A DNA stretch of 32,000 nucleotides, taken from contig CP001848.1 in NCBI GenBank assembly GCA_000025185.1, positions 5,820,001 to 5,852,000 of the forward strand. Direction: 5' to 3'. Within the stretch, counting starts at the first letter, position 1; the number at the start of each line of letters is the position of its first letter. Shown here piece after piece: positions 1 through 18,225 of this stretch. The notes under the pieces were generated by a model, which was not told the origin of the DNA, ran no database searches, and was given only the letters and a program-made list of their open reading frames with translations. The translations under genes were made by a program, and so were the position numbers. Source of the DNA: Pirellula staleyi DSM 6068 (GTDB lineage Bacteria > Planctomycetota > Planctomycetia > Pirellulales > Pirellulaceae).

Positions 1-2042
1 ATTTCACCGGGGTAGCGGAGGAGAAAGTAGAGCGTTGCTCGGGCAACCGTTCCTTTTCCAGCGTTCGGTTCGAACTTGTTGGTCTCGCTCTTGCCGCAGT
101 CAGAGCGGATGGCCTCGCCAAAGTTGGTGAAGTCGAAATAGGGGGTGTTGCTACGAAAACTGTTGCACTTGGATTCGCAAGCAAACAAATGATGCAAGTC
201 TCCTCGCATCGGTTGTCGCTTGTTGAACCATGACTGCGGCACCACGTGTTCACAGTTGTAAGGAAGATCGGCTTCCAACGATTCCAAGAATGCTGCTTCC
301 AAAACTGGGTTTGCGGCTGCTTCCGATCTTCGGAAGCGATTCATACGCTCACGACGGAGTCGAGCAACTTCGAGGTCACGAGCAATGAACTCAGTCGGCT
401 CAAACATCTGGGTCGAGTAGATGCTGCGAATTTTATGATTCGGCTGCAGGTCCACCCACGGGTACAGATGAATCGCTGGTTTGTATCCCAGTACCTTTAT
501 GTGCGTGTTACGCACGAGTTTGCTCAATGCATCAAATAGCTGCGAAGGGTTGAGAGTTGAAGAGATGCCGGAATAGTACGCTTTTCGTTCAGCGGCATCG
601 GTGTTTTCGTCGTAATAGGGGCGACTGCGGGACTCTTCGAAGATCTTCCTCGCTGCTTCGAAGTCCGCATCTTCCGGTTCCTCGGATGAGCGACTGGCTG
701 CAAGAGACGGCGTAGCTGGAGGAGGGCTGGATGTGACAACTGGCGTTGCGACGCTCGGCGCTCCCCCAGTAGGAGTTCCCAATGTGACTGACACGGTTAG
801 CGGGATCGTCCAGGTAGCCGTTGATCCGGCGGCGGCGACCGGCGAAGTTGCAGGAACTACCGTGCTAGGAACACTGACCTGAACCGGGCGCTGTCCAGGG
901 ACGGGCTCCGACTCTGGGTGAATCGGCTGTGGGTTCAACGCCACGTCTCGCAATGTCCCTTGCGTGGACGTCAGGCCTCCCAGTCCTGAAAGGTGCTCCC
1001 GGATTGCCACAACGCGAATCCCTTCGTTGGCGATCCAGTGAATTCGCTCGTCCCCCATCTCTTCTCGCCAAAGCAGGCCGTCAGTCGTCAGGAGGCGTCC
1101 AAGGTTGTCCCTCTCAGGAAAACCCGAGTGATGTAGAGCCACCACCTCCCATTGATCGTTGAAGACTGGAGCACCGGATGAGCCCGGAGTTGTGTCGGTC
1201 TCGTAGTACAAAAACCTGTCTTCGGTGTTGGGGAATCGCAATACGCGATTTTCTCGCAACGCAATCTGCTTCAGGTCTCCGCCTGGGTGTTGAATCACCG
1301 TGACGCTTTCACCAGCCAGGATTTCCCCTTCGCTAGCGGAAAGTGGATTGAACCCAAAAGTCGACAATTGAGTACTTGAGTCCCCTTCGGCGGCTTCAGA
1401 CACCGTGACAACCGTCAGGTCGAGTTCTTCTTCTGGACTCGTCGTAAAGAAAAGGTCGGGACGCAAACGAAATCGCGCGACGGGCAGTTCGCGGCCATCT
1501 AGCCCAAGTTGAAAATTGAACTCCACGACCGCGTTTCCGGCCCGGGCAGCGGAATCCAAGACATGACTGTTCGTCATGAAGAGGGACGGAGAGATCATCG
1601 AGCCTGTCCCGTAGCCCAACACGGATCCCGAGCTCGACCGAATGACCACTCGGGCTACAGCACGACCGGCCATTCTGCCCGCGTCGAGATACCGAACCGA
1701 CAGTAGTTCGTTTCTGCCGATGATGCGTTCAAGGCCAATTCGACGCGAGTCGAATTTCCCCTCCAGTGCTGGACCCGAGCCCGTCGCACTGCGGATGATG
1801 TCGGTAGAAAATCCCAGCCTTCGAAGTCGCCGTTCTATAGCGTCTGACGGATTACCTCTCAAAAGCTCGAACTGAGTTCGCGACTCAAGTCGTGCTCGGA
1901 ACGATTCATGGCGAATAGCAGGAGCGGCCTCTAGTGGCACCGTCGACTCTGTCCGAGTTGCCGACTCACCAAAAACTCGGCGAAAACGGTCAGCCGTGGC
2001 CTTAAGCAATTTCGAATGAGCGACAATAGACGTCTGGTCCAT
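1..2042 (-). CDS. Trypsin-like serine peptidase fused to an endonuclease I (EndA/NucM-type) domain; 3' end runs off the window
   Basis: Hand translation of the minus strand from the ATG at 2042-2040 gives an open frame to position 1. It is absent from the ORF track because there is no stop in the window. Protease motifs: GTGSMISPSLFMTNSHVL (His), DLTVV (Asp), TDTTPGSSGAPVFNDQWEVVALHHSG (Ser). A Pro/Ser/Thr/Ala-rich linker follows. Endonuclease I-like motifs: YNCEHVVPQSWF, GDLHHLFACESKCNSFRSN, FEPNAGKGTVARATLYFLLRYPGE. The N-terminus (MDQTSIVAHSKLLKATADRF) has no obvious signal peptide. Confidence 0.8.
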   Translation of the reverse strand, partial: MDQTSIVAHSKLLKATADRFRRVFGESATRTESTVPLEAAPAIRHESFRARLESRTQFELLRGNPSDAIERRLRRLGFSTDIIRSATGSGPALEGKFDSRRIGLERIIGRNELLSVRYLDAGRMAGRAVARVVIRSSSGSVLGYGTGSMISPSLFMTNSHVLDSAARAGNAVVEFNFQLGLDGRELPVARFRLRPDLFFTTSPEEELDLTVVTVSEAAEGDSSTQLSTFGFNPLSASEGEILAGESVTVIQHPGGDLKQIALRENRVLRFPNTEDRFLYYETDTTPGSSGAPVFNDQWEVVALHHSGFPERDNLGRLLTTDGLLWREEMGDERIHWIANEGIRVVAIREHLSGLGGLTSTQGTLRDVALNPQPIHPESEPVPGQRPVQVSVPSTVVPATSPVAAAGSTATWTIPLTVSVTLGTPTGGAPSVATPVVTSSPPPATPSLAASRSSEEPEDADFEAARKIFEESRSRPYYDENTDAAERKAYYSGISSTLNPSQLFDALSKLVRNTHIKVLGYKPAIHLYPWVDLQPNHKIRSIYSTQMFEPTEFIARDLEVARLRRERMNRFRRSEAAANPVLEAAFLESLEADLPYNCEHVVPQSWFNKRQPMRGDLHHLFACESKCNSFRSNTPYFDFTNFGEAIRSDCGKSETNKFEPNAGKGTVARATLYFLLRYPGE

Positions 2043-2332
2043 AAATATCTCGCTTTGACCCCAAATGAAACACGCTTGACGGGTGTATTCGCAGACGCAC
2101 CGCCGCGGCACTATATGGGTTCCGCATTTACTTTGGAAGCAAGTACATTCAGACTTTTTCCAAATAAATGCTATTCTCTCGATTGATTTAACAGGCCCTT
2201 AATAAGGACAGAAGCCCCCCCTTGCAATTAAAACCAAGTGTTGATCGCCTCAAAGCCCTACCTGCTCAGGAGTTAGGCGTCGGACGCATATGGCCCGAGT
2301 GCCGACGATGAGGAGCAAGCATTCGTACTGAA

Positions 2333-2635
2333 TCATGCAATTCCCCGAGAGCCAACGACAGCTTGTGGTTCGTGTTGCGACCAGACCTTGATCAAGCTCA
2401 CCGATATGGATTCGAACTGAAATCGTGACTTCTTATTCCCAAGTACGCATCTGCAGCCTAGATCGACATAGCGGATCGCTTCATCATGTGTATGTAGATA
2501 GGGCTTAGAGCGATAGATTCCCATTCGTAAGAAGGTCAATTTGAGACCAACGGTAGCGAATAAGACGGCAAAATTGGCTAGCGCCCACGCAGGAAAGCCG
2601 AACGAGGCTGGCGAACAATCAGTACAAAACCGCAT
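2333..2635 (-). CDS. Hypothetical small protein, possibly membrane-associated (weak call)
   Basis: A 100-aa ORF starting 40 nt downstream of the 323-aa gene on the same strand. It has a hydrophobic stretch, FGFPAWALANFAVLFATVGL. I recognise no family motif. Confidence 0.25.
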   Translation of the reverse strand: MRFCTDCSPASFGFPAWALANFAVLFATVGLKLTFLRMGIYRSKPYLHTHDEAIRYVDLGCRCVLGNKKSRFQFESISVSLIKVWSQHEPQAVVGSRGIA

Positions 2636-2675
2636 GGTCGATCACGATAGCGAGACGATTGAGGTGCGATGCCCC

Positions 2676-3647
2676 TTAGCGCCACAAAATCGACGGAGAG
2701 TCCTGCGACGAGCGTAGAAATCCGACGGGAAGTCGTGGGATTCCGAGGATTTCATTGGCGAGATCAAACCGCTTCCAGACTTCGGCGTCGTCCGGTGGGT
2801 CAATGATTACCAGGTTCGTTTCTACGCTCTCGAAGTTCTTGGCAGGGAGCCACGACTTGCAAGTAGGTGGTAGTAGGCCAAGCTCAACGTACTGCTCAAC
2901 AAGCGTCTTGATGCCTTGCGATAGGTACTCCTTCGCCATGGAGAACATGTCACGGTTGAACGCAGCCTCTTGGCAGCCCCAGTACAGACTTGGAAGATTC
3001 GACCCCAGCATGAGTTCGAAGCAGACGAGTTGTTGCTCCGGCCCAATTGCCAAAATATCAACCGCTCGATTGAGAAACCCGTTTTCGCCCCAGTTAGCTC
3101 TATCTTGCTGCTGCAATTTTGCTCGTTTGGCAAGCTGCTCCTGATGGAGCGGGCGATAAAACGCATCCTCTTCCGCGTCGGTTTCAAACCGGATCGACGA
3201 CCAGCGATCAAACATTAACCAGGGTGAATCGGATTGCCAGCAAACTCCATAGGATTTCAGAAGCTGGTTGGTCCAGTAACCTTCCTTGCGATCGCGGAAG
3301 AAACGTTCATCAGCCAGCAGACTGGCTGCTCGAAGGTATTGATCGATACCGGTAGCAAGTTGATCGGAGTCAAGCGTGAGCCCCATCACGTAGAGAGCTT
3401 CGTGTTCGGGTAGCTGGCGATAGCGGCGTGGGGCATTTAGCTCGATCCTCTCGTCACCTGTCGACTGCACAGTGAGCAGGCGTTCGAGCCCATGGTAAAT
3501 CTCTAGCGAATCGCCTCCTCGTATTCGGAGGTCGAATCGACACTCTTCTGTCGGATCAGAATTCCCAGTGAGCGCGATCAGCTTCCGCAAACTCGACTGC
3601 TGAAACTCACGCAAGAAACGATGACTCCAGGTATTAGGAAACTGCAT
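2676..3647 (-). CDS. Hypothetical protein with a possible degenerate PD-(D/E)xK-like core
   Basis: A 323-aa ORF with GAGGAG 5 nt upstream of the ATG (plus-strand ctcctc at about 3653-3658). The core AVDILAIGPEQQLVCFELMLGS has the D...E-x-K spacing of restriction-endonuclease-fold proteins, but Met replaces Lys. No family assignment is possible by eye. Confidence 0.7.
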   Translation of the reverse strand: MQFPNTWSHRFLREFQQSSLRKLIALTGNSDPTEECRFDLRIRGGDSLEIYHGLERLLTVQSTGDERIELNAPRRYRQLPEHEALYVMGLTLDSDQLATGIDQYLRAASLLADERFFRDRKEGYWTNQLLKSYGVCWQSDSPWLMFDRWSSIRFETDAEEDAFYRPLHQEQLAKRAKLQQQDRANWGENGFLNRAVDILAIGPEQQLVCFELMLGSNLPSLYWGCQEAAFNRDMFSMAKEYLSQGIKTLVEQYVELGLLPPTCKSWLPAKNFESVETNLVIIDPPDDAEVWKRFDLANEILGIPRLPVGFLRSSQDSPSILWR

Positions 3648-3928
3648 GGCTACTCCTCAGCCCAATGACAACGTAAAGCCTAAGCGGGTGAGTTGCAATT
3701 CTTAGCCCGCGTCATCGGCAGCAGTGGGTCAGCCTCGGTCGTTTCTGATGGCAAGGGGTTCTTTATGCCCCATCAAGCCGTCTGCCGAAATTCGTGCAAC
3801 CGCCACGTCACTACTGCCCCACTGCGGTCATTGAGTCTGGCGAGAATCTCCATCGCCATGAATCAGCCGCAAGGGCTAGCCTCGCGGGGTAATACGCTCA
3901 ACTTCGACTCAGCGCAAGGAACTAGCAC

Positions 3929-4093
3929 ATGTTTGATGACGATCCAGTGGACCCGATCAAAGAGGCCATGCGGCAGCACTACCGCAACAACCCCGGAAAA
4001 GCTTTTGCCGAGCATGGGCAAGCCGTCATCATCTTTGTTGTCATTCTGATTGTCGGTGCGATCGTAGGATCGATTGCCAATTTATTCCGCTAA
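3929..4093 (+). CDS. Small single-pass membrane protein candidate (54 aa)
   Basis: Hand-translated as MFDDDPVDPIKEAMRQHYRNNPGKAFAEHGQAVIIFVVILIVGAIVGSIANLFR*. It has one clear TM helix and AAGGA 8 nt upstream, and it ends 87 nt before the MBL gene. It is below the ORF-track size cut-off. Confidence 0.3.
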   Translation: MFDDDPVDPIKEAMRQHYRNNPGKAFAEHGQAVIIFVVILIVGAIVGSIANLFR

Positions 4094-4179
4094 GTCGTGG
4101 TCGCCTGATCCCAGCTGGCGACTCGTCAGTGATTCGAATTCACAATGGACGTTAGTTCTGCCGAGGAAAGATTGGCTGG

Positions 4180-5475
4180 ATGAGAATTACGATTCATCGA
4201 GGAACAAAAGAAATTGGTGGCTCCTGTGTCGAGATTGCAACGACATCGACCCGAATTGTGCTCGACCTGGGACTGCCGATTGTGGATGCCAATCGAGAAC
4301 CATTCGACTCGCGACTGGCACTCACCAAATCCAACGAAGAGCTTCGGGATGAAAAAGTTATTCCCGCTATTGCGGGACTCTTCGACGAATCTCACGCACC
4401 TCCCGATGCCATTCTGTTGAGTCATGCGCATCTCGACCACGCAGGGTTGCTGCACAGGTCTCGCACCGAAGTGCCCATCTACACCACAGCTGGCACGAGC
4501 AAGATGATGCTTGCTGCTGGAGTATTTGCTGGTCAAAAATCACTTGATCGAAACCGGTTTCGTCCGGTGACCAGCCAACAAACCTATCGCATTGGCGATT
4601 TCAGCATCACTCCGCTTTCCGTCGATCACTCGATCTTTGGAAGCGTTGCCTACCTCATCGAAGGTGATGGCAAGGCCATTCTTTACACGGGAGATTTTCG
4701 AAATCATGGCCGCAAACCAGGCATGATGCGCGACCTACTTGCCTTCGTTCGAGGCAAATCGATCGATGTGCTGATTGTCGAAGGAACACATTTTGGTGGC
4801 GAGCGAGAGCAAGGACGATCGGAGTTTGAGCTAGAAGTCGAGATCAGGAGTCTGATCGAATCAGCACCGGCTCTCGTGCTGGCCTGTTTTTCTGCACTCG
4901 ACATTGATCGGCTGGTAACGATCTATAAGGCGAGTCAAGCCGCAGGACGAACCTTAGTGATCGACGCCTATGCCGCATTTGTGCTTCATTTGCTTGGCAG
5001 TTCCGTCAGTACGCCCAAGCCGACGAAGGAATATGGAATTCGAGTGTTTTTCAACGCGCATTTCGAGAAGAGAAATCTCGTTGAAATTCGCAAGAGGTTT
5101 GAAGAAGTTCAGATTGAACTTTCCGAAGTGCTTCGAGATGAGAATCGCTATGTAATGATGTTTCGTCCATCGATGCTCGCGTCTGACTTTGGTGGATCAC
5201 TGCCTAAGCCTTGCCGATGCCTCTACGGATACTGGAAGGGTTACCTCGCAAAACCCGACTGGCAGGAACTTCAAAACGTGATTGAAGGTGCCCACGGCGA
5301 CTTCATTCCCGCACACGTCAGCGGTCATGCTTACATTCGCGACATCATTGCACTTGTCGCTGCCATCCAGCCGCGCCACATCCTGCCGATTCACACCTTC
5401 TCGCCCGAGAGCTTTAACGAGCACTTTGCGAATGTAGTAGCTATCGAGGATGGTTTGCCGTATCAAGTGAACTGA
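4180..5475 (+). CDS. MBL-fold metallo-hydrolase of the beta-CASP / RNase J-like type (putative nuclease)
   Basis: N-terminus MRITIHRGTKEIGGSCVEI. HxHxDH zinc motif LLSHAHLDHAGLL. YTGDF motif. The late HVSGHA motif is typical of beta-CASP members. GAGGAAAG lies 9 nt upstream of the ATG. Confidence 0.85.
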   Translation: MRITIHRGTKEIGGSCVEIATTSTRIVLDLGLPIVDANREPFDSRLALTKSNEELRDEKVIPAIAGLFDESHAPPDAILLSHAHLDHAGLLHRSRTEVPIYTTAGTSKMMLAAGVFAGQKSLDRNRFRPVTSQQTYRIGDFSITPLSVDHSIFGSVAYLIEGDGKAILYTGDFRNHGRKPGMMRDLLAFVRGKSIDVLIVEGTHFGGEREQGRSEFELEVEIRSLIESAPALVLACFSALDIDRLVTIYKASQAAGRTLVIDAYAAFVLHLLGSSVSTPKPTKEYGIRVFFNAHFEKRNLVEIRKRFEEVQIELSEVLRDENRYVMMFRPSMLASDFGGSLPKPCRCLYGYWKGYLAKPDWQELQNVIEGAHGDFIPAHVSGHAYIRDIIALVAAIQPRHILPIHTFSPESFNEHFANVVAIEDGLPYQVN

Positions 5476-5627
5476 CATGCGGTTCTTCTCCCCACAAAAA
5501 ACGCCTATCGTTGATAAAGGTAACTTCCTTTATCGAATGCAACATCCACTTATTCTTTCGCCTAAAAAATACACTGCAGAGTGTAGTTGACGCATGCAAG
5601 TTGAAGAAGGGCGAAGTGATTGTCAAC

Positions 5628-6334
5628 TTACTTCTCCCATCGCAGCAGCACTCCGCTAAAGCGGTTAAGCCAGCTGTGAGTACCCTTGACGACCCAACGC
5701 CTAGGGCGAACCCGCCTCTTTCTCACAACTCTTGATAGCGTGCGTGGATGTGAGCATGAAACAATAACTGACCTTGCACACACATGCGACCCCCTTTTGA
5801 GTCATAAGATTTATCGAGCAGCAGGCGTTCATAAGGAGAGTAAGTATCTCGCGGTAATATTAAAAGGCAGTTCTCGAGTGTTGCTTAAAGAAGACGTGAC
5901 TTGTTGGTATAGGTTCCGGAGATGGCGAATCCAACGGGGATGCCACGAGCATCGGCCATGTGAGCACTTGGTTCCCGGCTTGGTCAGATCCGCAAGGTTT
6001 TTGCCGGTTGTTTCGCAACCGAGGGGAGATTTGGTCACCGCACCATCGATACCTTGCCAGCGCCAGTCGAGTCCCACGAGGTCGTCAAGAGGCTCAATCG
6101 CTATTTACCATAAACCGTTGAATATGCCTTACTTTACACATTGCTGACAGTAGCTGTGGGCAGTGCTGTCAGCGGCAAGGCACCATAGTACGTTTTCAAT
6201 TGACAGCCTGCGCACTTTCGGTAGAAGATGCCTTCCACTCTGTCGCTTAGCACGGTTCTTGGCCGTCCGCCCAACGGCGAAGGAACGTATAGCGACAACA
6301 GGAGCTGAATCTGCTCCCGTGATTTGTAGAGCAT
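5628..6334 (-). pseudogene. IS5-family (DDE, DUF4096 N-terminus) transposase remnant broken by stops and frameshifts
   Basis: Three fragments lie in different frames. N-terminal: GGRPRTVLSDRVEGIFYRKCAGCQLKTYYGALP, matching the GRPR...ILNGIFYVLRTGCQWR pattern. Middle: LDWRWQGIDGAVTKSPLGCETTGKN..GTK, followed by a frameshift, after which DARGIPVGFAISG reads in another frame. C-terminal: RRWVVKGTHSWLNRFSGVLLRWEK*, with its stop at 5628-5630. I could not find terminal inverted repeats. Confidence 0.75.
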
Positions 6335-6576
6335 TCGTTAGGCATCAAAAAGCTAAAGCACAATCCAAGGCGGGTCTTCTTGTAAGGGTGCGAGTACGAT
6401 AACTCTCCTTTACCAAAAGGACTCACCTCTTTTCAAATACCAGTTTCGGGTTGCCGGATAGGCTCTACCTCAAATCACACCTTTTTGTGATATGCATCGC
6501 CTCACCCCATGACAGCAACGACTCCTCTTATATATATACTCCAGAGAAATCCGTTTATGCCACAAACACAAAACGC

Positions 6577-9396
6577 TCACGCATCAATCCGAACCGTAGA
6601 ACGCTCTTCAGCTTCGTAGCACATCAAAGTCGCAATAACATCTGACACAAAATCGAGGCAAAACCTCTGAAACGTGAACTCCTCTACACTAACCTGATCC
6701 GACCACGTTTCACCACCAAAGTCAACCATTTCCCCTTTTTGTTTGTCCCATTTAAAATTATCGCCCGCCAAGTATCCAACGGTATGCATACCGAGACGGG
6801 TACCCCTGTCGGGATGATACTTCTGTGGCCCAACAGGCGCGACGATCCACGGACTACCTGGAACCTTATGGAAGGCTGCGACACTTGGATCAGGTGCACC
6901 ACCAAGAGTAACATGATCTTGAATACGAGCATATGGATCATACTTTGATCGACTCACTGTATATTCCACATATGCATCGGAATCACAAATAACACTTCCA
7001 CAGTAGCCATTATCACTGACATGGCCTGGCGGGGACGCATCCTGCCTATCTTGAGAGCCAACGCAGATCGCACCTTGACGACGCCCACCTCCACACCTAT
7101 TCAAAACAAATAATCGAGCCCTTTGCAACCCACACTCTGGCGACACAAGCGCCGACAGCAAGCCATCAATAACGCTACGACGAAAAGTCGCCACCTTAAC
7201 CCTTTCGCCCCAAGACTTCCCTTCATCAACTGGACTAAGCTTGTCAGCAACTCTTTGTAAAAACTGAAGCGAACGTCCGTTTGTAGTCGCAGCGTAATTC
7301 GAGGATTCAGGCTCATTTGCGAGAAGGTGAAGTATACGCCTTGCCCGCTCGAGACCACGCCAAAACCTTTTTCTCCAGACTGGCTCGGACTTATTAGGCA
7401 AAGTGGTCCGTTCATAAGATACCTGACCAGCAAGCCCCGACCACCCAACAAATACCCCCGCCGTATATCCTCGCACATGAACAGGGAAGGCATAAATCGG
7501 ACCTTCAATTTGAAAGAATTCTTTTCCCCTCTTGGCCATAACTGCTGGGCAAGAATTCAAGCACATCTCAGCATCAGCCAGCTTAATAGTTCTCCGCTCT
7601 CTAAATGCTTCACACGCAAGAGACTGCTCTTCAAAACTGTAATCCCAGAGATCTCGCCCCGCCCTCTCCTTCTCTGAGTCAGTCCTTAGTGGAGCTTCAA
7701 GCTTTCCGCGAAATGGATCGATCTGATACAACAGGCATTGCAAATCAAGATCATCTAGATCACGACTACGCCGCAGAATCTCCTGCAATTTTATCGGACT
7801 ATCGCTGTATTTCTTAAGGCACTTGGCAGAGTCGGAAAGTCGATTTGCTTCATATCTCGCCGCACCAATCCTTCCAGCAAAGTCTCTAGCTACTTCAAAA
7901 TGATACTTGGAGAACATATATCCAGCGCCAGCCTCTAATGTGAGAACTCCCGATCGTCGTCCATCGACATATATTGGCACCAAAAGCGCGGTTTTCGTAC
8001 TAGGGTTCTGTGGTTTGAAATGAATATCGACAAACCCCTGGCGATCCAACTCAATAGCACTATGATCGACACTCTCAATTAAGGCGAAGTCGTCATCTAT
8101 TTTGCGCTGCAAGAAGAGTCGGCTTTGGATCACATTATTTGGAACCTGAACTGCGGAATATGATTCCTGACGCAATCCAGTTGGCTGTTTCAAATCGACT
8201 AAGTACGTTACAGTCTGATCAGTTTCTCGATGCGAGAACATCCGATAAATTACACGATGCTCCGCTAAATTCGGCATAGTCATGCAAACATCTCCGTAGG
8301 GAACACCTAGACGAAGCATTAGGGTTTGCAAGAGCCAAGAGGTCTGTAGTCGTTCGCTCGGAGCCTTAAGGTGGGTCGAAGGATCTGGTAAATACTGCGC
8401 CCGGCCGAAACGAAACGGTTGTGAACGTCCGGAAAACGCAGCCAATCCCCCTAAATGCGCAATGGTCGCGGCGACTCCACCGGTAATTGGATCGTTGGGT
8501 AATGAAGGTGCATTTATCTCATTAGCAACTATTGTCCGAATATTGTATGATCGCTCCAGAACTTCAGAATAACCTGGGTCATAAAACCTTCGAGGAAATA
8601 TTGCGTAATGCGGTCCGAACACATCTCCGTATAGCGACTTAGCTTCATCCATCAGGGACAGAAGATCGGGATCGGAAAAGCTTACCCCTGTGAACAGGAA
8701 GGTTCGGGTAGCCAAGAGCATTCGAAGACAATGTAGTAACGATTCGTTTACCTGCATCAAATCACGGTAGTGTGAGCGAGCAAGAACAACGGATTGTCGT
8801 ATTGCATAGTCTCCATGCAACTTTAGAACGCAGAAGATTCCAGACCTCAAGTTCTGGAGTACATCATGTGGATTTTGCCAAGTAAGGCGAGGAACCGATG
8901 AGTGATAGGCAGACTCTAGGAGGCAGTCATAGTTCGTAGTGATAGCCAAAGAAAATGGAATGGCCGCAATTGTTCGATGAATAGCGGTTGGAACTGATGC
9001 GTTCCCAAATACTCTGTGAGTTAAGTTTTGCAGACGATTGCCTAGTACGTTTTGCAACATCTCTGCGGCAACTAAAAAATCTCCCGATGCAATTCGCCTA
9101 GATATGCTTGCTGCAGTCGCCCTCGAGTAGAGCCTCGCCTCTTGCTCTAGTGTTTCGAGAAATCCTACCCAACCAGGTAAACCTGCCGCCAAAGAGGCGC
9201 CAGCACCTAAGTAGACGACGCTATTCCCACGAGCAATCGCCTCAATTAACTCTGTTGAACGGGCAGTCAATTGTCCAGACGCCTCAACGGTTTCCGGATT
9301 CTCCATCCGATCCAATATACTATGACTGCGGCGTTCTTCTAAAGGTGTATTCCAATCTCTATCGAAGAACATGGTAGTTGAAGTCATTTTGAGCAC
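6577..9396 (-). CDS. SIR2-like (SIR2_2 type) putative NADase with three tandem GAF-like modules
   Basis: SIR2_2 motifs: VVYLGAGASLAAGLPGW (aa 60-76), ITTNYDCLLE (Asn155), LKLHGDY (His194), FLFTGVSFSDPDLL. GAF-like signatures: TALLVPIYVDGRRSGVLTLEA...FEVARDFAGRIGAARYEANRL (about aa 350-520), GPIYAFPVHVRGYTAGVFVGWS (about aa 540-695), SPWIVAPVGP...GMHTVGYLAGDN (about aa 710-925). The track start at 9396 is GTG. The ATG at 9387 has GAGGTG 6 nt upstream and is the more likely start. Confidence 0.85.
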   Translation of the reverse strand: MLKMTSTTMFFDRDWNTPLEERRSHSILDRMENPETVEASGQLTARSTELIEAIARGNSVVYLGAGASLAAGLPGWVGFLETLEQEARLYSRATAASISRRIASGDFLVAAEMLQNVLGNRLQNLTHRVFGNASVPTAIHRTIAAIPFSLAITTNYDCLLESAYHSSVPRLTWQNPHDVLQNLRSGIFCVLKLHGDYAIRQSVVLARSHYRDLMQVNESLLHCLRMLLATRTFLFTGVSFSDPDLLSLMDEAKSLYGDVFGPHYAIFPRRFYDPGYSEVLERSYNIRTIVANEINAPSLPNDPITGGVAATIAHLGGLAAFSGRSQPFRFGRAQYLPDPSTHLKAPSERLQTSWLLQTLMLRLGVPYGDVCMTMPNLAEHRVIYRMFSHRETDQTVTYLVDLKQPTGLRQESYSAVQVPNNVIQSRLFLQRKIDDDFALIESVDHSAIELDRQGFVDIHFKPQNPSTKTALLVPIYVDGRRSGVLTLEAGAGYMFSKYHFEVARDFAGRIGAARYEANRLSDSAKCLKKYSDSPIKLQEILRRSRDLDDLDLQCLLYQIDPFRGKLEAPLRTDSEKERAGRDLWDYSFEEQSLACEAFRERRTIKLADAEMCLNSCPAVMAKRGKEFFQIEGPIYAFPVHVRGYTAGVFVGWSGLAGQVSYERTTLPNKSEPVWRKRFWRGLERARRILHLLANEPESSNYAATTNGRSLQFLQRVADKLSPVDEGKSWGERVKVATFRRSVIDGLLSALVSPECGLQRARLFVLNRCGGGRRQGAICVGSQDRQDASPPGHVSDNGYCGSVICDSDAYVEYTVSRSKYDPYARIQDHVTLGGAPDPSVAAFHKVPGSPWIVAPVGPQKYHPDRGTRLGMHTVGYLAGDNFKWDKQKGEMVDFGGETWSDQVSVEEFTFQRFCLDFVSDVIATLMCYEAEERSTVRIDA

Positions 9397-9460
9397 CTCG
9401 TCGAACTGATTCTGCAGAATAGCCTTTCTAAGTTTCGCTCATTCCGACGAGGTTCTACCG

Positions 9461-9495
9461 CAAAAAGGCAGCTGTTGCAAATAGAAAACAGCTAC
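9461..9495 (-). terminator. Rho-independent terminator-like hairpin between the STAND gene and the SIR2 gene
   Basis: The minus strand reads GTAGCTGTT-ttctatttgc-AACAGCTGC followed by CTTTTTG. That is a 9-bp stem with one G-U pair and a 10-nt loop, followed by five T residues. It starts about 60 nt after the STAND stop codon at 9556. Confidence 0.5.
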
Positions 9496-9555
9496 ATTTC
9501 GAACGGCTAAATAATTGTGGGAAAGACTGTTCGATATTCCAGATCGCGGTAGGTA

Positions 9556-12500
9556 TTAATCCTCGAATCTCTGCCCTTGACGGATGCGTTCCCTTGCCTC
9601 CCCATGCCGCTCATCTGAAATTTTGCCTATGAGCTTCTGGTACCGATTTTTAGCCCAATCCGCTACTTCGCTTCTTTCATCACTCTGCAGCGGAATCATC
9701 AAAGCAGACCTAGCCTCAAGTATCGAAGCCCTTGAACCGCTCCATGCTAAAAAGTCAAACAATGACTGCGAAATGCTTTCCAGAGTCAAAACCGGGTTCG
9801 GACTCTGATTGACGATCACCATCGCTATGGGCCTCCAGCACATCGGTTGCCCTGCCTCTCCTTTCACGAATGACGTGATGCATGCAGCGATCTTCGCGTA
9901 GCGTACGTGTGGCTCACGACGGCACCAATTCAGCAACTGTTCATCTGGTATTTGGTCGAAGGGATTCCCGTAGGGCCCCCACAGCATTTTGTACATGCTC
10001 CAATCTCGTCGCCTCTCTGCGTCGCCATCGATGAAGCTGTCCAAGAATAATGCCGGTCGAGCATTCGCGAGTTTGTTCATTGTTCTCGGATAGTCATATC
10101 GTGAAATGCTGTGACGAGTAATCCCGGCTGACAAGCCTTCGCACAGATTTCGAGCGGCAACGCCCCCGGCTTTGGATGTGATACAATTCTTTATAAGCCC
10201 CCCAAGGTGATAGTCCCGATCTTGACTCCGTGAGGTCTTTTCTGGGAATTTAAATTGCGAGAGAAAATGCCTTGCGAACCGTAGAATCTGATTTCTCGTC
10301 CGTGGACTGTGATCATTGCTCAGTCGCGAATCCAGAGCTTCGATCACAAAGTCGGCTCCACCTTCCAGTTCCATCACTACTCGCAGGAACTTGACTAGCT
10401 CCTTGTCTCCAAGACTCACCTGAACCCCAGCGTAGCAGAGCCTTCGCAAAGAATTGACATCCTGAAGTCTGCCTTGCAAAGCCTTTCTCAGCCGACTGAG
10501 CGATTCCGCATTCAACGGGAAGGCCAGTTGCAAATCTGGAAAAACCTGTGAAAACGTGTTGTCGGTAACCAAGATGTCCATTGCAGTACCAAACAGACTG
10601 CGATCTGAATCATGAATGCCTGCCAAGTAGCCGTATATGACTCCAAACCGGCGCTCTTTCGGACTCGCGCTAACATACTCATACCTCAATTGTGTTAGCA
10701 GTTTGAGATAATCCGAAGCTCCCTTCGCCAATCCTCTTCCGAATGCAAACACTCGCTGGCTATCGCAACGGACAACCTCCGGCAGTAGCGACTCTAAATC
10801 ATCGGCAAAACCGGAGGCCAATTGACGACCGCAGTCCTCTGCAATCTCTGCCGCCCTCAGATACGCCCCTTCAAAATCCATACCGTCGCTATCCTCAAGA
10901 ACAAGCTCAGTAGAATGTCGACTGCTGGACAGGGCGAAAGCCCGAGTCCTAGCAACAAGATCCTGCGGTTTCAAGATTTGCTCAAGCTCCTTAGCAGCAT
11001 CTACACTCTCGGTCGGCAAATGCTTGCGACGACTCAGTATTTCCCGCACAGTGACCCAGCCTTCGTACCACCCTCGATACTCATGTAATTGTCGCGCTAC
11101 CGCGATGATCTGATCAAACTGCCGCGTGTGAATCCAAAGTCCAAATAGGACTTTTGCGAAACACTCACGTACCGCATTCGAATCGCCATCCTCCCTGTTA
11201 GAAAACTTCTCCACAACGAGCAAGAAGGCACGCAGCCACTCTCTTAGATCAGCAGTTGACGTAGGTGAGTACCCAGAGTCTCGAATGCGGGCACCGAAAT
11301 CGTACTCGTAAGACGAATCATCCCTTTCTGTCTTCAGCGCCGACTCAAGCATTAACACTCCTAACCGTCGTTCCTTAGCTTCTGTAGATTCAAGTAGCTG
11401 CGCTACGAAAGTCGCTCTCGCATTGGGTGACGCATGAGTGCCAGAATGCCGAATTTGCAACAAAACTGAGAGGAAGTGTCGCGATGTTGAACCACTCTGC
11501 TCGTCTTCATGCATTGCGAAAGCTACGAGAATGGTTGCAGCTCGATGAAAGAGTGAGGCGTCAAACGCCAAGTGCCAAATCAACTTCGTTAACTTCGGTC
11601 TGTGCGAACTGAGCGTAGTCCTAGCCAGGGTATCGTCCTTCGCGATCCCAACCTCAATAGCGGAGAGCGTAGCGCTTGGAGCAATGGGTGCTATGTTCTC
11701 GAAAACCGCGAAGCCGAGATCGTTCAATTTATCAACAGCACTCCCGATCAACCCTCCAGGCTGCAACCAGTCAGTTGCAATACGTGTCGCAACCGAAGAA
11801 TGGTGAAGAAACCCTAGTCTTCGGGCAAACGATTTTAGCAGCCTCTCGTCTGACGTTTGAAAGTGCCTTACCAGGGTCTCGGTCGGAATCGAAGCCAACG
11901 CCCTGTTGGCCAGATAATTCGCGATAGCGTGAGGGAGAATCGCGCGCCATGGACCTCGAATCTGCACAAGGTCTCGGCGTTGCAGCTCCGCAACTTGTCG
12001 ATAAAGCTCGGAACTCGAAGTTTCGATTAGGATGGCCAGTCTGTTCAGCTCTGAAGTTGACTCCACGCCTTCTCCGTTGAAGGAATAAACCAGAGAGCAC
12101 GCCTCAGCGGCCCGAAGCAATGCTTCGTTGGGTTGATGGCGTTGCCAAAACAGTCGGACGAATAGATCGTCGTTCCGGAGTGATATGATTGATTCGCCGA
12201 GCGATACGGTGGATGCCAACGCAATGGCGATTCGATAGTTGCCGCCAGAAAACTTAGCAATCTTCTGAGCGTTCGCATCGCCGATATGAGGAAAACGCTT
12301 TGATAAGAAAGTGTCGATTACATCTTCACTTGCTGGCCGTAGTTTAACGGCATTCGTATTCTCCGGAACGTCATCTCGAACATCATACTCGACAGTAAGC
12401 AGACTCAATAGGCTTGGTTCGCAGGTGCAAATGTCTGCCAGATGCTTGTGAAGCTCTGGCGGACAGTTGTCGACAATCAGAATTGCACGACGCTTTTCTT

Positions 12501-13377
12501 GGACCAAAGACTCGGCAAAGGTAATCGGATCTGGCATGAGCCGACTGGAGTTGTCCGCGTATAGTGCTAAATCGCGATTCAAAGAGAACTGGGAAAGGCG
12601 TTCATCAAAGAGCGCCTGTACAAAACGTGTCTTACCTGTACCCGAGAGGCCAGTCAGGCGAATTGCGGTACGGGGATTCGATAGTTGCGTGGATAATGAG
12701 TGCAGAGCATCGACGACCGAAAAATCGGTATCGAGTGATCGAGCGAAATCCTGCACAACAAGAGAATCATCGATTATGTATTCGTCCTCAATTCCACCAA
12801 ACGCATGTGCCCAGTTTTCATAGCCCTTCCAGCCCGTGATCGGTCTTCCACACTTGGTCCGAACCCAGGCAGCAAGAGATGGATGGCACTTCACCCACTG
12901 CGCAACGCGATCTGCCCCGAGGAAGTCAATGTGGAAAGACTTTGGTCGCTTGGCCCAACCAATTGCATGCTTCATGGCGTCCCTTCGACCACGTAGGCCT
13001 TTGTCAGTTGGCGACTCCTTCGAAGTTACGATCAAGTATGAACCGCCGTTTGTAGCGAGATCGCGAATTGAAGTCCTCAGGCTTCCATCTGGCCGCATCT
13101 CGCTCATGATCGCGGATGGGGGCATCCTGGATGTCTTGACTTGAATCCCGGTATACGAACGAGGAATGAAGCTCTTCGTTGGAAGCGGGCCGGCTGCCTT
13201 AACTACTACGTCGAGTCCGCCATCAGCGGCATCCTGGTGGCCCCCTGCAGTAATCGAGGAAAGTGAAATGCCTGCATTGCGAATTTCAGCTTCGCATAAT
13301 AAGACGACCAGGGTGCGAAAGTCTGCATCTCCTAGTTTTTCAATGTCTTTGCGATCAATTTCGAGAGGATTACTCAT
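9556..13377 (-). CDS. STAND-type P-loop NTPase (Avs-like architecture): Mrr-like PD-(D/E)xK N-terminal domain, NTPase, long alpha-helical C-terminal region
   Basis: N-terminal domain: DADFRTLVVLLCEAE...GGHQDAADGGLDVVV...YTGIQVKTS...GGSYLIVTS, which follows the Mrr-cat pattern (F..LV..L, DGGxD, QxK, xxTTS). Walker A: LTGLSGTGKTRF (aa 241-252). Walker B: RAILIVDNC (aa 297-305). About 950 further residues are Leu/Ala/Arg-rich and have helical-repeat character. Confidence 0.85.
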   Translation of the reverse strand: MSNPLEIDRKDIEKLGDADFRTLVVLLCEAEIRNAGISLSSITAGGHQDAADGGLDVVVKAAGPLPTKSFIPRSYTGIQVKTSRMPPSAIMSEMRPDGSLRTSIRDLATNGGSYLIVTSKESPTDKGLRGRRDAMKHAIGWAKRPKSFHIDFLGADRVAQWVKCHPSLAAWVRTKCGRPITGWKGYENWAHAFGGIEDEYIIDDSLVVQDFARSLDTDFSVVDALHSLSTQLSNPRTAIRLTGLSGTGKTRFVQALFDERLSQFSLNRDLALYADNSSRLMPDPITFAESLVQEKRRAILIVDNCPPELHKHLADICTCEPSLLSLLTVEYDVRDDVPENTNAVKLRPASEDVIDTFLSKRFPHIGDANAQKIAKFSGGNYRIAIALASTVSLGESIISLRNDDLFVRLFWQRHQPNEALLRAAEACSLVYSFNGEGVESTSELNRLAILIETSSSELYRQVAELQRRDLVQIRGPWRAILPHAIANYLANRALASIPTETLVRHFQTSDERLLKSFARRLGFLHHSSVATRIATDWLQPGGLIGSAVDKLNDLGFAVFENIAPIAPSATLSAIEVGIAKDDTLARTTLSSHRPKLTKLIWHLAFDASLFHRAATILVAFAMHEDEQSGSTSRHFLSVLLQIRHSGTHASPNARATFVAQLLESTEAKERRLGVLMLESALKTERDDSSYEYDFGARIRDSGYSPTSTADLREWLRAFLLVVEKFSNREDGDSNAVRECFAKVLFGLWIHTRQFDQIIAVARQLHEYRGWYEGWVTVREILSRRKHLPTESVDAAKELEQILKPQDLVARTRAFALSSSRHSTELVLEDSDGMDFEGAYLRAAEIAEDCGRQLASGFADDLESLLPEVVRCDSQRVFAFGRGLAKGASDYLKLLTQLRYEYVSASPKERRFGVIYGYLAGIHDSDRSLFGTAMDILVTDNTFSQVFPDLQLAFPLNAESLSRLRKALQGRLQDVNSLRRLCYAGVQVSLGDKELVKFLRVVMELEGGADFVIEALDSRLSNDHSPRTRNQILRFARHFLSQFKFPEKTSRSQDRDYHLGGLIKNCITSKAGGVAARNLCEGLSAGITRHSISRYDYPRTMNKLANARPALFLDSFIDGDAERRRDWSMYKMLWGPYGNPFDQIPDEQLLNWCRREPHVRYAKIAACITSFVKGEAGQPMCWRPIAMVIVNQSPNPVLTLESISQSLFDFLAWSGSRASILEARSALMIPLQSDERSEVADWAKNRYQKLIGKISDERHGEARERIRQGQRFED

Positions 13378-13717
13378 TGCTTTTCAAACGCCCGCCGATG
13401 CTTCCAATGATTTCGATTTCCTCCGTTGCAGTAAGTCGATGCAATGTAACTTGCGCAACAGATGGGCAACAATCCGACCGAGCCAAATTTTCAGACGCCG
13501 AAAACCTTACTTGGTCTATTTTAGCAAACAAGTGGTTACCGCTCAGGCCATTTTGAGGAAGCGGCATAACGCCTCCCCCTACCAACTGCGCAAGTTCTTC
13601 CGTCAGGAGGAACACACTAATTGCACCGAAGTTAATTCTCCACATTCGCAGCAACATCGCCACTCGGTGAGTCCACACAATGACGCCCCCTGGGAGTCCC
13701 GCTGGCACGTCCATCAA
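13370..13717 (-). CDS. Small ORF translationally coupled to the STAND gene (real start may be the ATG at 13567, giving 65 aa)
   Basis: Its stop overlaps the STAND start as ATGAGTAA (8-nt overlap at 13370-13377). The internal ATG at 13567 is preceded by GGGGGAGG with a 4-nt spacer. The C-terminus is LTATEEIEIIGSIGGRLKSNE. The region is otherwise of uncertain coding status. Confidence 0.35.
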   Translation of the reverse strand: MMDVPAGLPGGVIVWTHRVAMLLRMWRINFGAISVFLLTEELAQLVGGGVMPLPQNGLSGNHLFAKIDQVRFSASENLARSDCCPSVAQVTLHRLTATEEIEIIGSIGGRLKSNE

Positions 13718-14325
13718 ATGCCCTGCCCAGGTTTATCGCCGATATTGGACAAACGCGTTAAACAAATCCACTATGATCATAATACCTATCAGAGAGCAAG
13801 TCGTGTACCGGACCCTAAAATCGGGAGTCCCTCATTGGCATCCCCATCAACTTCGACATTGCTTGTTGCTGTACGTAGAACCCATTGCAAGACTGTCCAA
13901 TTTTTAAATTTTCGTTCTTCCTAACGCGGTATATAAATAGTCGTTGAAGGAAGTCTCACGATAGCTGGAGAGAACACTTTGATCATGTTGATCCAGCAGA
14001 GGGAGTTGTTTCGTCCTCTGTCCCCAAAGCATGAATCATCGGCACGTGGCGGCATGTAGCGAATAGCTAAATCTTCCATGTCTCGATGGAATCTTGTGGG
14101 GGGCGCGTAGTGGAGCCTGCTAGAAGGACCAGCCCAGCACTTTCCTTCACCAAGCATCTGTTAGCGGCTACTTGCCGAGTGAGAAGATGCTGGTGCATCT
14201 TTTTGAACGCGACTTTAAATGAACGCTTCTGGGAACTTAAAGGCTTAGGCAGTTCGTCCTCTTCGTCTTTCCACTCTTCACCTCAGATCGGGGCTCGCCA
14301 GCAGCTTGGTGCATCTGAAGTATGG

Positions 14326-15204
14326 CTACATCTGAGTGATGGTTGTCGACTGAAAATCACTTGCGCCAAATACAACTCGAACAGATGGAATGAGTGTGTC
14401 GCCAATCGATGCAATGAACGGCCATTCTTTGCCCCGGATACTCCGAGCGTTGCGGCCCAAGTAGTAGCTTTCGGGAGCGAGCACAATGAGCAATGGCCGA
14501 GCATCACGGCTGGGAAGAGTTTGCTCAAATCCAGCAGGGATTTTGCGTGCTGGTTTCATCTTCCAGCGTGCGAAACCACGCAAGATTTTGTCGAAGTTGG
14601 GTTGGCGATGCAAACAGGCAAGATAATCGAGGCCTTCCAAAATTGCAGTGAGCGGAGCGTTGCCGTTGACCAATTTGGCTTCCAGCACAACGAGTCCGCC
14701 GCCCGCAGTAATACCGATCAAGTCGGCTCGTCGTCCCTTCTCGGCTGATCCACCTTGTGTTGGCCACTGATAGCCAAGTAGCCAGATCTTTTCGCTGCCT
14801 AGTGTGAGGCAGCCATCTCCGGCGTGTGCAGCACGAAACAGCCTGGCGACCTGTCGCTCTTCACACTCACCATCTTCGAGCGGATGGGAATCACGATCGA
14901 TAAAGACTTCGCCGCTATAGCCAACTTTTAATTCGCGTTGTCGCTGAAACTCGGCGTCGAGCATCGCGCCGAGCAATACCGGCCAGAGCGGACGATTTCC
15001 ACGCACCTGCTGAAGTTCCAACAGCCAAGTTCGAAAGCCAGTTGGCTCGACACTTTTGGGGACCATTTTGACGACCACTTCGCGAAGGGACTGTGACATC
15101 CCCTGGCGAAACTCCGCATCTCGTCGGCTGCGATGTCGTGCAATAAGCAACGCAACATCGCATTCCACGATGCCACCAGTAGGTCGATGGCATAACTGCC
15201 CCAC
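14326..15204 (-). CDS. PD-(D/E)xK (restriction-endonuclease-fold) family protein
   Basis: The core GRRADLIGITAGGGLVVLEAKLVNG is a textbook D-x(n)-E-x-K arrangement. The track start is GTG. Internal ATGs at aa 36 and aa 47 are alternative starts. The gene is divergent from the HTH gene at 15269. Confidence 0.65.
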   Translation of the reverse strand: MGQLCHRPTGGIVECDVALLIARHRSRRDAEFRQGMSQSLREVVVKMVPKSVEPTGFRTWLLELQQVRGNRPLWPVLLGAMLDAEFQRQRELKVGYSGEVFIDRDSHPLEDGECEERQVARLFRAAHAGDGCLTLGSEKIWLLGYQWPTQGGSAEKGRRADLIGITAGGGLVVLEAKLVNGNAPLTAILEGLDYLACLHRQPNFDKILRGFARWKMKPARKIPAGFEQTLPSRDARPLLIVLAPESYYLGRNARSIRGKEWPFIASIGDTLIPSVRVVFGASDFQSTTITQM

Positions 15205-15268
15205 TGTCGTCAGAGCGTGGCACTATGTTCGTCGTTTTGCTCCAAACCAGCGAACAAACGATTCGAGC

Positions 15269-15700
15269 ATGGCTAAAAGACGAACGGAACGCCCCGATCC
15301 AGATAGGCGGCTGCGCCAAGCGGAAAAGATCGCCAGACATTTGCGGCTACTCAAGATGATTCTTGGACCAGGTAGGTGGGATGCTGATTCTCTGGCTCGC
15401 GAACTAGATTGCAGTGCTCGTACGGTGCACCGAACATTGCAGGCACTGACTCTGGCTGGAATCCCGTGGTTCTTTTGTCGCGAGACAGAATCCTACAGAG
15501 TGCGAGATGGATTTCGATTTCCAGGTCTCAAAGAGTCTTCAACGGATGAATCGTCGACAACGCAATCGACGGTTTTGACTCCTGCTGTAGTTGGGAGACT
15601 CAAGCGACTTTCTGCCAACGGGAAAAAGCTAACCTCCATATTGCAAGTAGTCTGCGATGAAGCCGAGGAGCTAAGCAGAATAATAAGTGCCTCGATTTAG
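15269..15700 (+). CDS. Short HTH transcriptional regulator (DeoR/YafY-type HTH_11-like N-terminus, no WYL domain)
   Basis: From the ATG at 15269: MAKRRTERPDPDRRLRQAEKIARHLRLLKMILGPGRWDADSLARELDCSARTVHRTLQALTLAGIPWFF..SYRVRDGFRFP. The upstream part of the 214-aa track ORF overlaps the divergent gene and looks non-coding. Confidence 0.7.
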   Translation: MAKRRTERPDPDRRLRQAEKIARHLRLLKMILGPGRWDADSLARELDCSARTVHRTLQALTLAGIPWFFCRETESYRVRDGFRFPGLKESSTDESSTTQSTVLTPAVVGRLKRLSANGKKLTSILQVVCDEAEELSRIISASI

Positions 15701-16290: not shown

Positions 16291-16493
16291 ATGCGTTACG
16301 TAAGTCTTCAAGAAATTGCGCAGGTTTTTGGCATCTCTGTTAGGACCCTCTACCGCCTGAGGGCCGCAGGTAGACTTCCTCGCCCGATCCAAATCGGCCG
16401 ACGCATGTCCTACTGTGTTGAGGAAATGCATCGCCATTTCCAAGCAGGAAAATGCGCACCCTCGCGAACTATCAGCAAGGGAGGGAAGTCCTA

Positions 16494-16494
<1 letters not shown>
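16291..16494 (+). CDS. AlpA/excisionase-family HTH DNA-binding protein
   Basis: MRYVSLQEIAQVFGISVRTLYRLRAAGRLPRPIQIGRR fits the HTH_17/MerR-like Xis pattern. GGGAG lies 6 nt upstream. Its stop overlaps the integrase start as TAATG. Confidence 0.8.
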
Positions 16495-18181
<1,687 letters not shown>

Positions 18182-18197
18182 TCGCGTTGTGTCACCA

Positions 18198-18225
18198 ATT
18201 TTAACGCACGGTTTGTGGCTCGCAA
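18198..18225 (-). promoter_or_regulatory. Candidate sigma70-like promoter for tRNA-Asp
   Basis: The minus strand reads TTGCGA, a 16-nt spacer, then TAAAAT. The -10 element ends 16 nt before the mature tRNA 5' end. Promoter rules for this lineage are uncertain. Confidence 0.35.

Follow-up and report, generated by a model that had tools for sequence, protein, structure and literature searches.

Psta_4469 of Pirellula staleyi: a SIR2 core with three GAF-like modules, proposed as a self-contained anti-phage NADase

SIR2 domains that hydrolyse nicotinamide adenine dinucleotide (NAD+) form a major effector class in bacterial immunity. The triggers known for these NADases are either phage proteins, as for DSR2, Avs5 and the SPARSA-type systems, or signals provided by a partner enzyme, as in Thoeris. 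Both in ThsA and in DSR2 the NADase is switched on by binding of its trigger, and DSR2 recognises a tail tube protein of the phage by means of a domain of helical repeats. The GAF family is best known from cyclic-nucleotide and metabolite signalling; in the phosphodiesterases (PDE) PDE2, PDE5 and PDE6 and in CyaB2, control is exerted by tandem GAF domains. Psta_4469 of Pirellula staleyi DSM 6068 brings both kinds of domain together in one polypeptide. Its gene lies on the reverse strand of a stretch of 32,000 nucleotides (contig CP001848.1), hereafter called the window, and encodes a SIR2_2 core followed by three GAF-like modules. We propose, at a probability of roughly 0.55, that the protein is a self-contained, single-protein anti-phage NADase of the abortive-infection type that is gated by its GAF modules.

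The closest described SIR2 protein by sequence is ThsA of type I Thoeris (PADLOC E 1.6e-28), which has the same catalytic Asn and His. A general logic may be shared as well, in that a C-terminal sensor of the ligand type would gate an N-terminal NADase. Differences are nonetheless clear. The PADLOC ThsA models match amino acids (aa) 49-269 only, covering model positions 12-225 of 478. ThsA has a C-terminal SLOG/STALD domain for the signal made by ThsB, whereas Pfam detects no SLOG or LOG domain in Psta_4469 and three GAF modules are found instead. Also, Thoeris has an adjacent ThsB (TIR) gene, while no TIR-only gene is present in the window or beside 13 homologs.

DSR1 and DSR2 resemble Psta_4469 in layout: each is one large polypeptide in which a SIR2 NADase at the N-terminus is joined to an extended C-terminal sensor, and neither needs a partner gene. 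Here too the sequence similarity is confined to the SIR2 part: the PADLOC Dsr2 model matches aa 129-246 only (E 2e-4, model positions 99-215 of 1222) and the Dsr1 model aa 49-87 only (E 0.036). The C-terminal 600 aa of Psta_4469 are matched by nothing in PADLOC. Membership in ThsA, DSR1 or DSR2 is ruled out, since all matches are limited to the SIR2 region; the first-pass annotation of the window, made from the sequence alone, had likewise placed the protein outside these families. That annotation also likened the protein to ThsA in concept, with a different sensor. The different sensor stands, but because there is no partner gene the logic is nearer to that of DSR1 and DSR2 than to the ThsB-dependent ThsA.

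The open reading frame (ORF) of Psta_4469 spans 6577..9396 on the minus strand and counts 939 codons from the first in-frame GTG. Residues are numbered throughout according to this 939-aa frame. The database protein has 936 aa and is 100% identical to the window ORF; its probable start is the ATG at 9387, with GAGG 8 nucleotides (nt) upstream, the GTG at 9396 being three codons earlier. Features are listed in Table 1, where the borders of the modules (M1, M2 and M3) are those drawn from an alignment of 28 sequences. The architecture of a SIR2_2 core with three GAF-like modules, as first proposed from the letters alone, is confirmed. The evidence for the three modules, which comes from Pfam, profile-profile comparison with hhalign, AlphaFold2 models, Foldseek and a transitive profile link, goes far beyond chance, and every motif on which the proposal was built is found in the translation at its position.

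Table 1. Coordinates of the SIR2-GAF gene, its domains and neighbouring defence genes (window coordinates unless a locus is named)
Feature	Position	Strand	Basis
SIR2-GAF-GAF-GAF coding sequence (Psta_4469, 936 aa)	6577..9387	-	homologs align over full length
SIR2_2 NADase-type domain, aa 45-335	8392..9264	-	Pfam E 2.8e-31; PDB sequence matches; no CxxC
Asn155 codon, predicted catalytic Asn	8932..8934	-	alignment to ThsA; invariant in 28/28 homologs
His194 codon, predicted catalytic His	8815..8817	-	alignment to ThsA and DSR2; invariant in 28/28 homologs
GAF module M1, aa 340-527	7816..8379	-	Pfam GAF_2 or GAF
GAF module M2, aa 528-702	7291..7815	-	hhalign against M1; AlphaFold2 model; Foldseek
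GAF-like module M3, aa 703-939	6580..7290	-	AlphaFold2 model; Foldseek; profile link to Pfam GAF
Avs8A / PD-lambda-4_A STAND NTPase, probably not part of the system	9556..13377	-	PADLOC PDLC03991 E 1.5e-275
Septu PtuA/PtuB, directly beside the SIR2-GAF gene of locus L006	L006, 3703-7231	-	PtuB E 7e-80

Pfam SIR2_2 (PF13289) covers aa 150-289 at E 2.8e-31, scoring 108.9 bits (cut-off 24.5), and is found in all 28 members of the alignment. The motifs read GAGAS at aa 64, TTNYD at 153, LHGD at 193 and GVSFSD at 237. Among sequences in the PDB, the SIR2 domain matches ThsA (7uxt, 6lhx and 8wc0, E 1e-13 to 1e-12), DSR2 (8k98, E 2e-10) and KomC (8zsf). All solved relatives by sequence are defence proteins or have been deposited merely as Sir2-family deacetylase; the named defence NADases among them are ThsA, DSR2 and KomC. 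As reference we took the catalytic residues N112/H152 of ThsA and H171 of DSR2. N155 of Psta_4469 aligns with the N of TTNYD in 6lhx and with the mutated position (TTAYD) of the ThsA chain 8bto, and the KLHGD motif containing H194 aligns with KMHGD of ThsA and KVHGD of DSR2. N155, D157 and H194 are invariant in all 28 homologs. The SIR2 landmarks of the initial annotation are thus borne out, both by the Pfam match and by the agreement of N155/H194 with the catalytic Asn/His of ThsA. No CxxC zinc motif is present in the SIR2 domain of Psta_4469, which has three cysteines only; the domain therefore lacks the zinc module of the protein-deacetylating sirtuins. With a mean pairwise identity of 0.49 against 0.28 to 0.35 for the GAF modules, SIR2 is the most conserved part of the family. 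Judged by its sequence, the domain belongs to the ThsA/DSR2 type with catalytic Asn and His and is a predicted NADase.

The three C-terminal modules differ in how readily they are recognised. For M1, Pfam GAF_2 or GAF (PF01590 / PF13185) is detected in 27 of the 28 family members, with a best E of 7.8e-17. The window protein itself scores 25.1 bits for GAF_2, just under the gathering score of 28.6 (E 2.2e-5, aa 463-513), and carries the motif LLVPIYVDG at aa 471. M2, with the motifs PIKLQEIL at aa 534 and IYAFPVHV at 634, is linked to M1 by hhalign (probability 82%, E 1e-5, 74 columns), and the only match of its profile to PDB sequences is the GAF-B domain of PDE10A (E 0.86). The AlphaFold2 model of M2 has a predicted local distance difference test (pLDDT) score of 85.7 and a predicted template modelling (pTM) score of 0.83. 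When this model is compared to the PDB with Foldseek, 41 matches are obtained at E<1e-3, of which 40 are GAF domains or GAF-containing PDE chains; the sole exception is 1mkm, an IclR regulator. The matches include CyaB2 (1ykd), PDE10A GAF-B (2zmf), PDE6, Lcd1 and PDE2A, at template modelling (TM) scores of about 0.5 and a probability of 0.99-1.00. According to the model, M2 clearly has a GAF fold.

M3 has the motifs SLQFLQ at aa 709, PWIVAPVG at 849 and HTVGYLAGDN at 871. No similarity is detectable between M3 and M1 or M2 by hhalign, nor between the M3 profile and PDB sequences. The GAF assignment of M3 therefore relies on its fold and on a transitive sequence link. The AlphaFold2 model (pLDDT 89.6, pTM 0.88) shows an order of secondary-structure elements that fits a GAF fold with insertions. 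The top eight Foldseek matches in the PDB are all GAF domains (E 7.5e-5 to 2.6e-2): the best is PDE5A (3lfv), and 3oov, PDE6C, PDE10A, a phytochrome GAF-PHY and an HD-GYP GAF are also among the top matches. TMq values are modest, at 0.36-0.40 in this top group and no higher than 0.47 lower in the list, and M3 is therefore divergent, with insertions. The sequence link is provided by the M3 profile, which was searched against 1.84 billion representatives and reaches multi-GAF histidine kinases. In one of these (P0158) the matched stretch 568-671 falls inside a Pfam GAF domain (PF01590, 557-695, 75.9 bits). Taken together, M3 is a divergent GAF subtype. None of the GAF modules has a consistently basic charge that would hint at nucleic-acid binding.

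Viral proteins also appear among the fold matches of M3. The best viral matches of the model, taken from BFVD, include phage proteins named GAF domain-containing. Several phages encode a protein that stands alone, is 210-260 aa long and has a GAF fold like that of M3 (E 3e-4 to 2e-3); two of these bear that name, and their sources include Ackermannviridae sp., Klebsiella phage RaK2 and Cronobacter phage GAP32. It would be pure speculation to regard such proteins as a ligand sponge or decoy.

The M3 module carries a signature, RxR(L)(F/W), DPYAR, K..PW.V.P and G(Y)L(S/A)(A/G)D(N), that recurs outside the SIR2 family. Proteins without SIR2 that are matched by the M3 profile are histidine kinases with three or four GAF domains (P0117, P0141, P0144, P0147, P0153 and P0158), the MerR-GAF proteins P0136 and P0156, the GAF-PAS protein P0142, and P0137 and P0161, which have an N-terminal DUF4062 domain. 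In most of them an M2-like module directly precedes the M3-like module, as in Psta_4469, although the outputs are a kinase, DNA-binding or DUF4062. The kinases P0117, P0144, P0147, P0153 and P0158, both MerR-GAF proteins and P0137/P0161 have in common DRVR, PYAR, DP.A..L.K..PW.V.P and G.I.ADN. Aligned to the M3 model, the non-SIR2 modules keep G[FL][DE]R[VA]R.[FW] (R759 and R761 of Psta_4469), PYA[RK], DP.AR, G.DP.A..L.K....PW.V.P (K844, W850 and P854) and L.G[YQ]I[SA]ADN (G874 and D879). Because the output domain varies while these residues stay the same, they cannot form a contact surface for SIR2. The site is thus a property of the sensor, intrinsic to this GAF subtype, be it for ligand binding, allostery or dimerisation.

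The two metagenomic DUF4062 proteins deserve a separate remark. P0137 (695 aa) and P0161 (746 aa) carry DUF4062 at aa 3-83, a Pfam GAF domain at 377-508 and an M3-like GAF at 541-660; no domain is assigned to the stretch aa 84-376. DUF4062 has been reported as a TIR-like NADase family that is active in phage defence (bioRxiv 10.64898/2026.05.01.722283; 10.64898/2026.09.04.749371). P0137 and P0161 therefore look like the same kind of sensor placed on a second, unrelated NADase. Effector swaps on one sensor are typical of conflict systems.

The best structural matches of M2 and M3 (1ykd, 2zmf, 3lfv, PDE6 and 1mc0) come from tandem-GAF enzymes, that is PDE2, PDE5, PDE6, PDE10 and CyaB2. By analogy, Psta_4469 may follow the same principle, in which an allosteric GAF array governs the catalytic domain of its own polypeptide. 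It differs from these enzymes in that the SIR2 output is N-terminal to the GAF domains, that there are three of them and that NKFDE is absent, and TM scores are 0.37-0.53. The NKFDE motif (NK...F...DE), which marks the GAF domains of the PDE/CyaB type that bind cyclic nucleoside monophosphates (cNMP), was found by regular expression in none of the 28 members. Binding of cyclic nucleotides, which the initial annotation had named as common among GAF domains, is unsupported here. A precedent for a GAF domain that perceives a cue of infection or damage is offered by CapP and IrrE, metallopeptidases regulating immune or DNA-damage operons, in which single-stranded DNA is bound in a groove formed with the GAF domain (PMC13228613). 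The analogy is one of role: CapP and IrrE have a single GAF, the groove is formed with the peptidase domain, and the output is repressor cleavage, not NAD+ depletion.

The family is rare. A word-indexed search yielded 43 proteins, some 30 being full length (28-71% identity, coverage of the query 83% or more), and the exhaustive search with the M3 profile yielded 125 representatives (66 at E<=1e-30). When 158 proteins were scanned with local hidden Markov models for each part, 74 had the full SIR2-M1-M2-M3 architecture; the remainder are mostly metagenomic fragments. SIR2-M1-M2-M3 is thus a fixed four-domain unit. A scan of species-representative genomes with the full-length alignment took the SIR2 motif as its seed and therefore gave mostly unrelated SIR2 proteins, along with at least seven full-length relatives. 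Named sources are Planctomycetota (Pirellula, Gimesia and several metagenome-assembled genomes, MAGs), Verrucomicrobiota (Prosthecobacter) and Bacteroidota (Larkinella humicola, Cytophagales and Bacteroidia MAGs); the distribution is patchy across three phyla. Two relatives, P0002 (1098 aa, 71% identity) and P0007 (1083 aa, 56%), have an extra C-terminal part of about 150-170 aa that is absent in Psta_4469.

Existing annotation says little about these proteins. Psta_4469 matches no model of NCBIfam release 20, its matches in PADLOC 2.0 are confined to the SIR2 region, and one family member is named SIR2 family NAD-dependent protein deacylase by NCBI. No description of a SIR2-GAF architecture was found in the full-text literature, although the libraries are incomplete and it may be described elsewhere. 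With that limit, the SIR2-GAF pairing is rare and undescribed.

Within the window, Psta_4469 is part of a low-GC island of about 2000-18200, with a GC content of 0.47-0.54 (2 to 16 kb) against 0.55-0.60 on the flanks. Just past the high-coordinate edge of the island is a tyrosine recombinase (16452..18170, plus strand, 572 aa) with an N-terminal excisionase-like helix-turn-helix (HTH) domain, the 3' end of which overlaps a tRNA-Asp on the opposite strand (18107..18181, minus strand). A direct repeat of the tRNA-Asp 3' end, which as an att site would delimit the island, was not found in the window. The neighbour immediately upstream of Psta_4469, at 159 nt on the same strand, is a full-length Avs8A (aa 6-1272 covered, in a model of 1283 positions), for which Pfam and NCBIfam give weak AAA matches only. 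Avs8A (PD-lambda-4_A) belongs to the STAND NTPases, has an Mrr nuclease domain and binds major capsid proteins of the HK97 fold (bioRxiv 10.1101/2025.07.02.662641; 10.64898/2026.01.04.697583). This neighbour, which the first reading had missed, places Psta_4469 in a defence island.

To see which parts of this context are conserved, the window was compared with 13 further loci (14 in total). No conserved neighbour exists in the 14 loci, and Avs8A stands beside the homolog in none of the 13 further ones. Neither the window nor these 13 loci contain a cyclase, a CD-NTase (cGAS/DncV-like nucleotidyltransferase) or a stand-alone TIR gene; the statement in the initial annotation that no cyclase or other signal-generating enzyme is visible hence holds for the entire window and extends to the other loci. 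The only TIR match is an N-terminal fusion on the Septu PtuA of locus L006. A conserved small upstream ORF was considered as partner, but four candidate ORFs from four loci proved unrelated upon alignment.

A defence system is adjacent or nearby in four of the 14 loci: the window, L003, L006 and the contig of P0002. In L003 an integrase is located upstream and CRISPR-Cas genes follow about 2 kb downstream. On the P0002 contig the gene has an SNF2 helicase on one side and a DUF4391-methyltransferase-restriction enzyme set on the other, McrBC being a further neighbour. Transposases are nearby in L001, L008 and L090. As a further observation, the PtuA of L006 (880 aa) has N-terminal TIR_2 and SIR2_2 domains before its AAA ATPase.

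The following mechanism is inferred as a whole: that the protein is an active NADase, that it acts in defence, in which direction it is gated and what kind of cue it responds to. At rest, the three-GAF array would act both as sensor and as autoinhibitory scaffold and would keep SIR2 off. The array itself would perceive an infection cue, the conserved polar site of M3 being the likeliest place. The cue would then change the conformation or the oligomeric state and release the NADase, as in the tandem-GAF enzymes and other SIR2 defence effectors. Once active, the SIR2 effector would hydrolyse NAD+ and thereby starve the infected cell and the phage. No dedicated signal synthase would be required; the cue would come from the phage or from the infected state of the host. 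What supports a GAF-gated anti-phage NADase is the type of SIR2 domain with its catalytic residues, the fixed four-domain unit that occurs without a partner, the defence and mobile-element contexts, the patchy distribution and a signature that is independent of SIR2.

Several observations weigh against a role in defence. About half of the loci have housekeeping or signalling neighbours only, and the association with defence neighbours is a raw count, given without a background rate. No member, either by its GAF region or by the protein, occurs in the PLSDB plasmids, the INPHARED phages or IMG/VR, and the family is not a defined system in PADLOC 2.0 or NCBIfam. Finally, most M3-like sensors belong to proteins of ordinary signal transduction, and a physiological signal would fit them equally well. 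Psta_4469 could then be a non-immune regulator, an enzyme that consumes NAD+ (as NADase, ADP-ribosyltransferase or deacylase) and responds through its GAF domains to a metabolite or stress signal, within the normal signalling of the PVC group (Planctomycetes, Verrucomicrobia and Chlamydiae) and Bacteroidota. The main carriers of M3-like and M2-M3-like arrays, namely histidine kinases, MerR regulators and PAS proteins, would agree with this, as would the purely housekeeping surroundings of several loci, the two loci next to a two-component cluster (response regulators with HDOD and HD_5, Hpt, PAS kinase) and the deacylase name of one member. We nevertheless regard a physiological regulator as unlikely, though worth keeping in mind. 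The domain belongs to the SIR2_2/ThsA/DSR2 branch, its functionally named solved relatives are all defence NADases and the sirtuin zinc module is missing; moreover, the sparse and patchy spread over three phyla is unlike that of a housekeeping regulator, and adjacency to defence systems and mobile elements is seen repeatedly.

Two other explanations accept a role in defence and place the trigger in another protein. One is that Psta_4469 is a receptor-effector for a signal from an enzyme encoded elsewhere in the genome, comparable to ThsA or to Pycsar/CBASS, with GAF replacing the SLOG, SAVED or cNMP-binding domain. Cyclic nucleotides are indeed classical ligands of GAF domains, M2 comes closest in fold to cNMP-binding GAFs (CyaB2, PDE10A, PDE6, Lcd1 and PDE2A) and the SIR2 domain is closest to ThsA in sequence. 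Signal-based defence systems, however, normally keep synthase and effector together, linkage of the two being the rule, and no cyclase, TIR or CD-NTase gene is present in the window or beside a homolog in the 13 loci. Together with the absence of NKFDE from all 28 members, this makes a signal supplied in trans rather improbable. The other explanation takes Psta_4469 as the second component of the adjacent Avs8 (PD-lambda-4), replacing Avs8B and serving as an extra effector when Avs8A detects the major capsid protein. The gene follows a full-length Avs8A on the same strand, the 159-nt gap between them shows no terminator-like site, and in E. coli the position downstream of Avs8A is taken by Avs8B (bioRxiv 10.1101/2025.07.02.662641). 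The pairing is not conserved, though, as none of the 13 other loci shows it, and the E. coli Avs8A has an Mrr nuclease effector of its own and functions without its operon partner Avs8B (bioRxiv 10.1101/2025.07.02.662641). An Avs8B homolog is not found in the window. Psta_4469 as Avs8B is ruled out, since no PD-Lambda-4_B model matches it at E<=1 and the pairing is not conserved; as an Avs8 component in a wider sense it is very improbable.

A more far-reaching version of the gated anti-phage NADase can be formulated, to which we attach a tentative and rather low confidence. M3 could represent an unrecognised ligand-binding GAF subfamily, and the proteins with SIR2 and three GAF modules could be immune receptors that work without a synthase and respond to an infection-specific small molecule with NAD+ collapse. 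The polar site, made up of RxR in the first strand, PYAR, DP...K..PW and ADN, would then be common to kinases, MerR regulators and both the SIR2 and the DUF4062 NADases. The small molecule might be a nucleotide derivative made by the phage or an alarm metabolite of the host.

Other genes in the window and in the compared loci are mentioned here for completeness. An ORF that runs off the left window edge (3-2198, minus strand) combines a trypsin-like peptidase domain with an Endonuclease I domain, and 4180-5475 (plus strand) encodes a beta-CASP / RNase J-like metallo-beta-lactamase (MBL) nuclease of 431 aa. Pairs of protease and MBL are reported as Avs2 effectors (bioRxiv 10.64898/2026.08.25.746987). 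The gene at 15056-15700 (plus strand) encodes a protein of 214 aa, perhaps the transcriptional regulator of the island, that contains HTH_11 and is matched by a WYL-regulator model of PADLOC (E 3e-8); no family was matched by the surrounding ORFs (13166-15204). In the compared loci, the same kind of two-component cluster is seen at 11837-18766 of L006 (by P0005) and at 1471-7179 of L090 (by P0017). In both, one response regulator carries HDOD and another HD_5, and Hpt and a PAS hybrid kinase complete the cluster. P0005 and P0017 are distantly related members of the SIR2-GAF family, and the cluster is on opposite sides of the gene in the two loci. This may reflect chance or a functional link to nucleotide second-messenger signalling. 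Genes for Peptidase_C14 (caspase-like) and CarboxypepD_reg occur near the SIR2-GAF gene in Larkinella humicola (Bacteroidota; L014, 6514-14954) and in a Prosthecobacter MAG (Verrucomicrobiota; L089, 2210-5146).

Summarizing, what appears to be new is a SIR2 NADase of the defence type with a new class of sensor; a SIR2 fusion as such is unsurprising. If the family is not immune, it would provide the first metabolite-gated SIR2_2 enzyme in ordinary signalling, which would be new as well, though less striking. If M3 does define a ligand-binding subfamily of immune receptors, GAF would be a new sensor class in bacterial immunity, for a ligand not yet linked to infection. The combination of a SIR2 effector with three GAF modules and no partner gene suggests a third route to activation, namely the direct sensing of a small molecule or another cue. 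As the M3 signature is found in kinases, MerR regulators and a DUF4062 fusion, it offers a concrete site for mutation (R759, R761, K844, W850 and D879) and a lead to the ligand.

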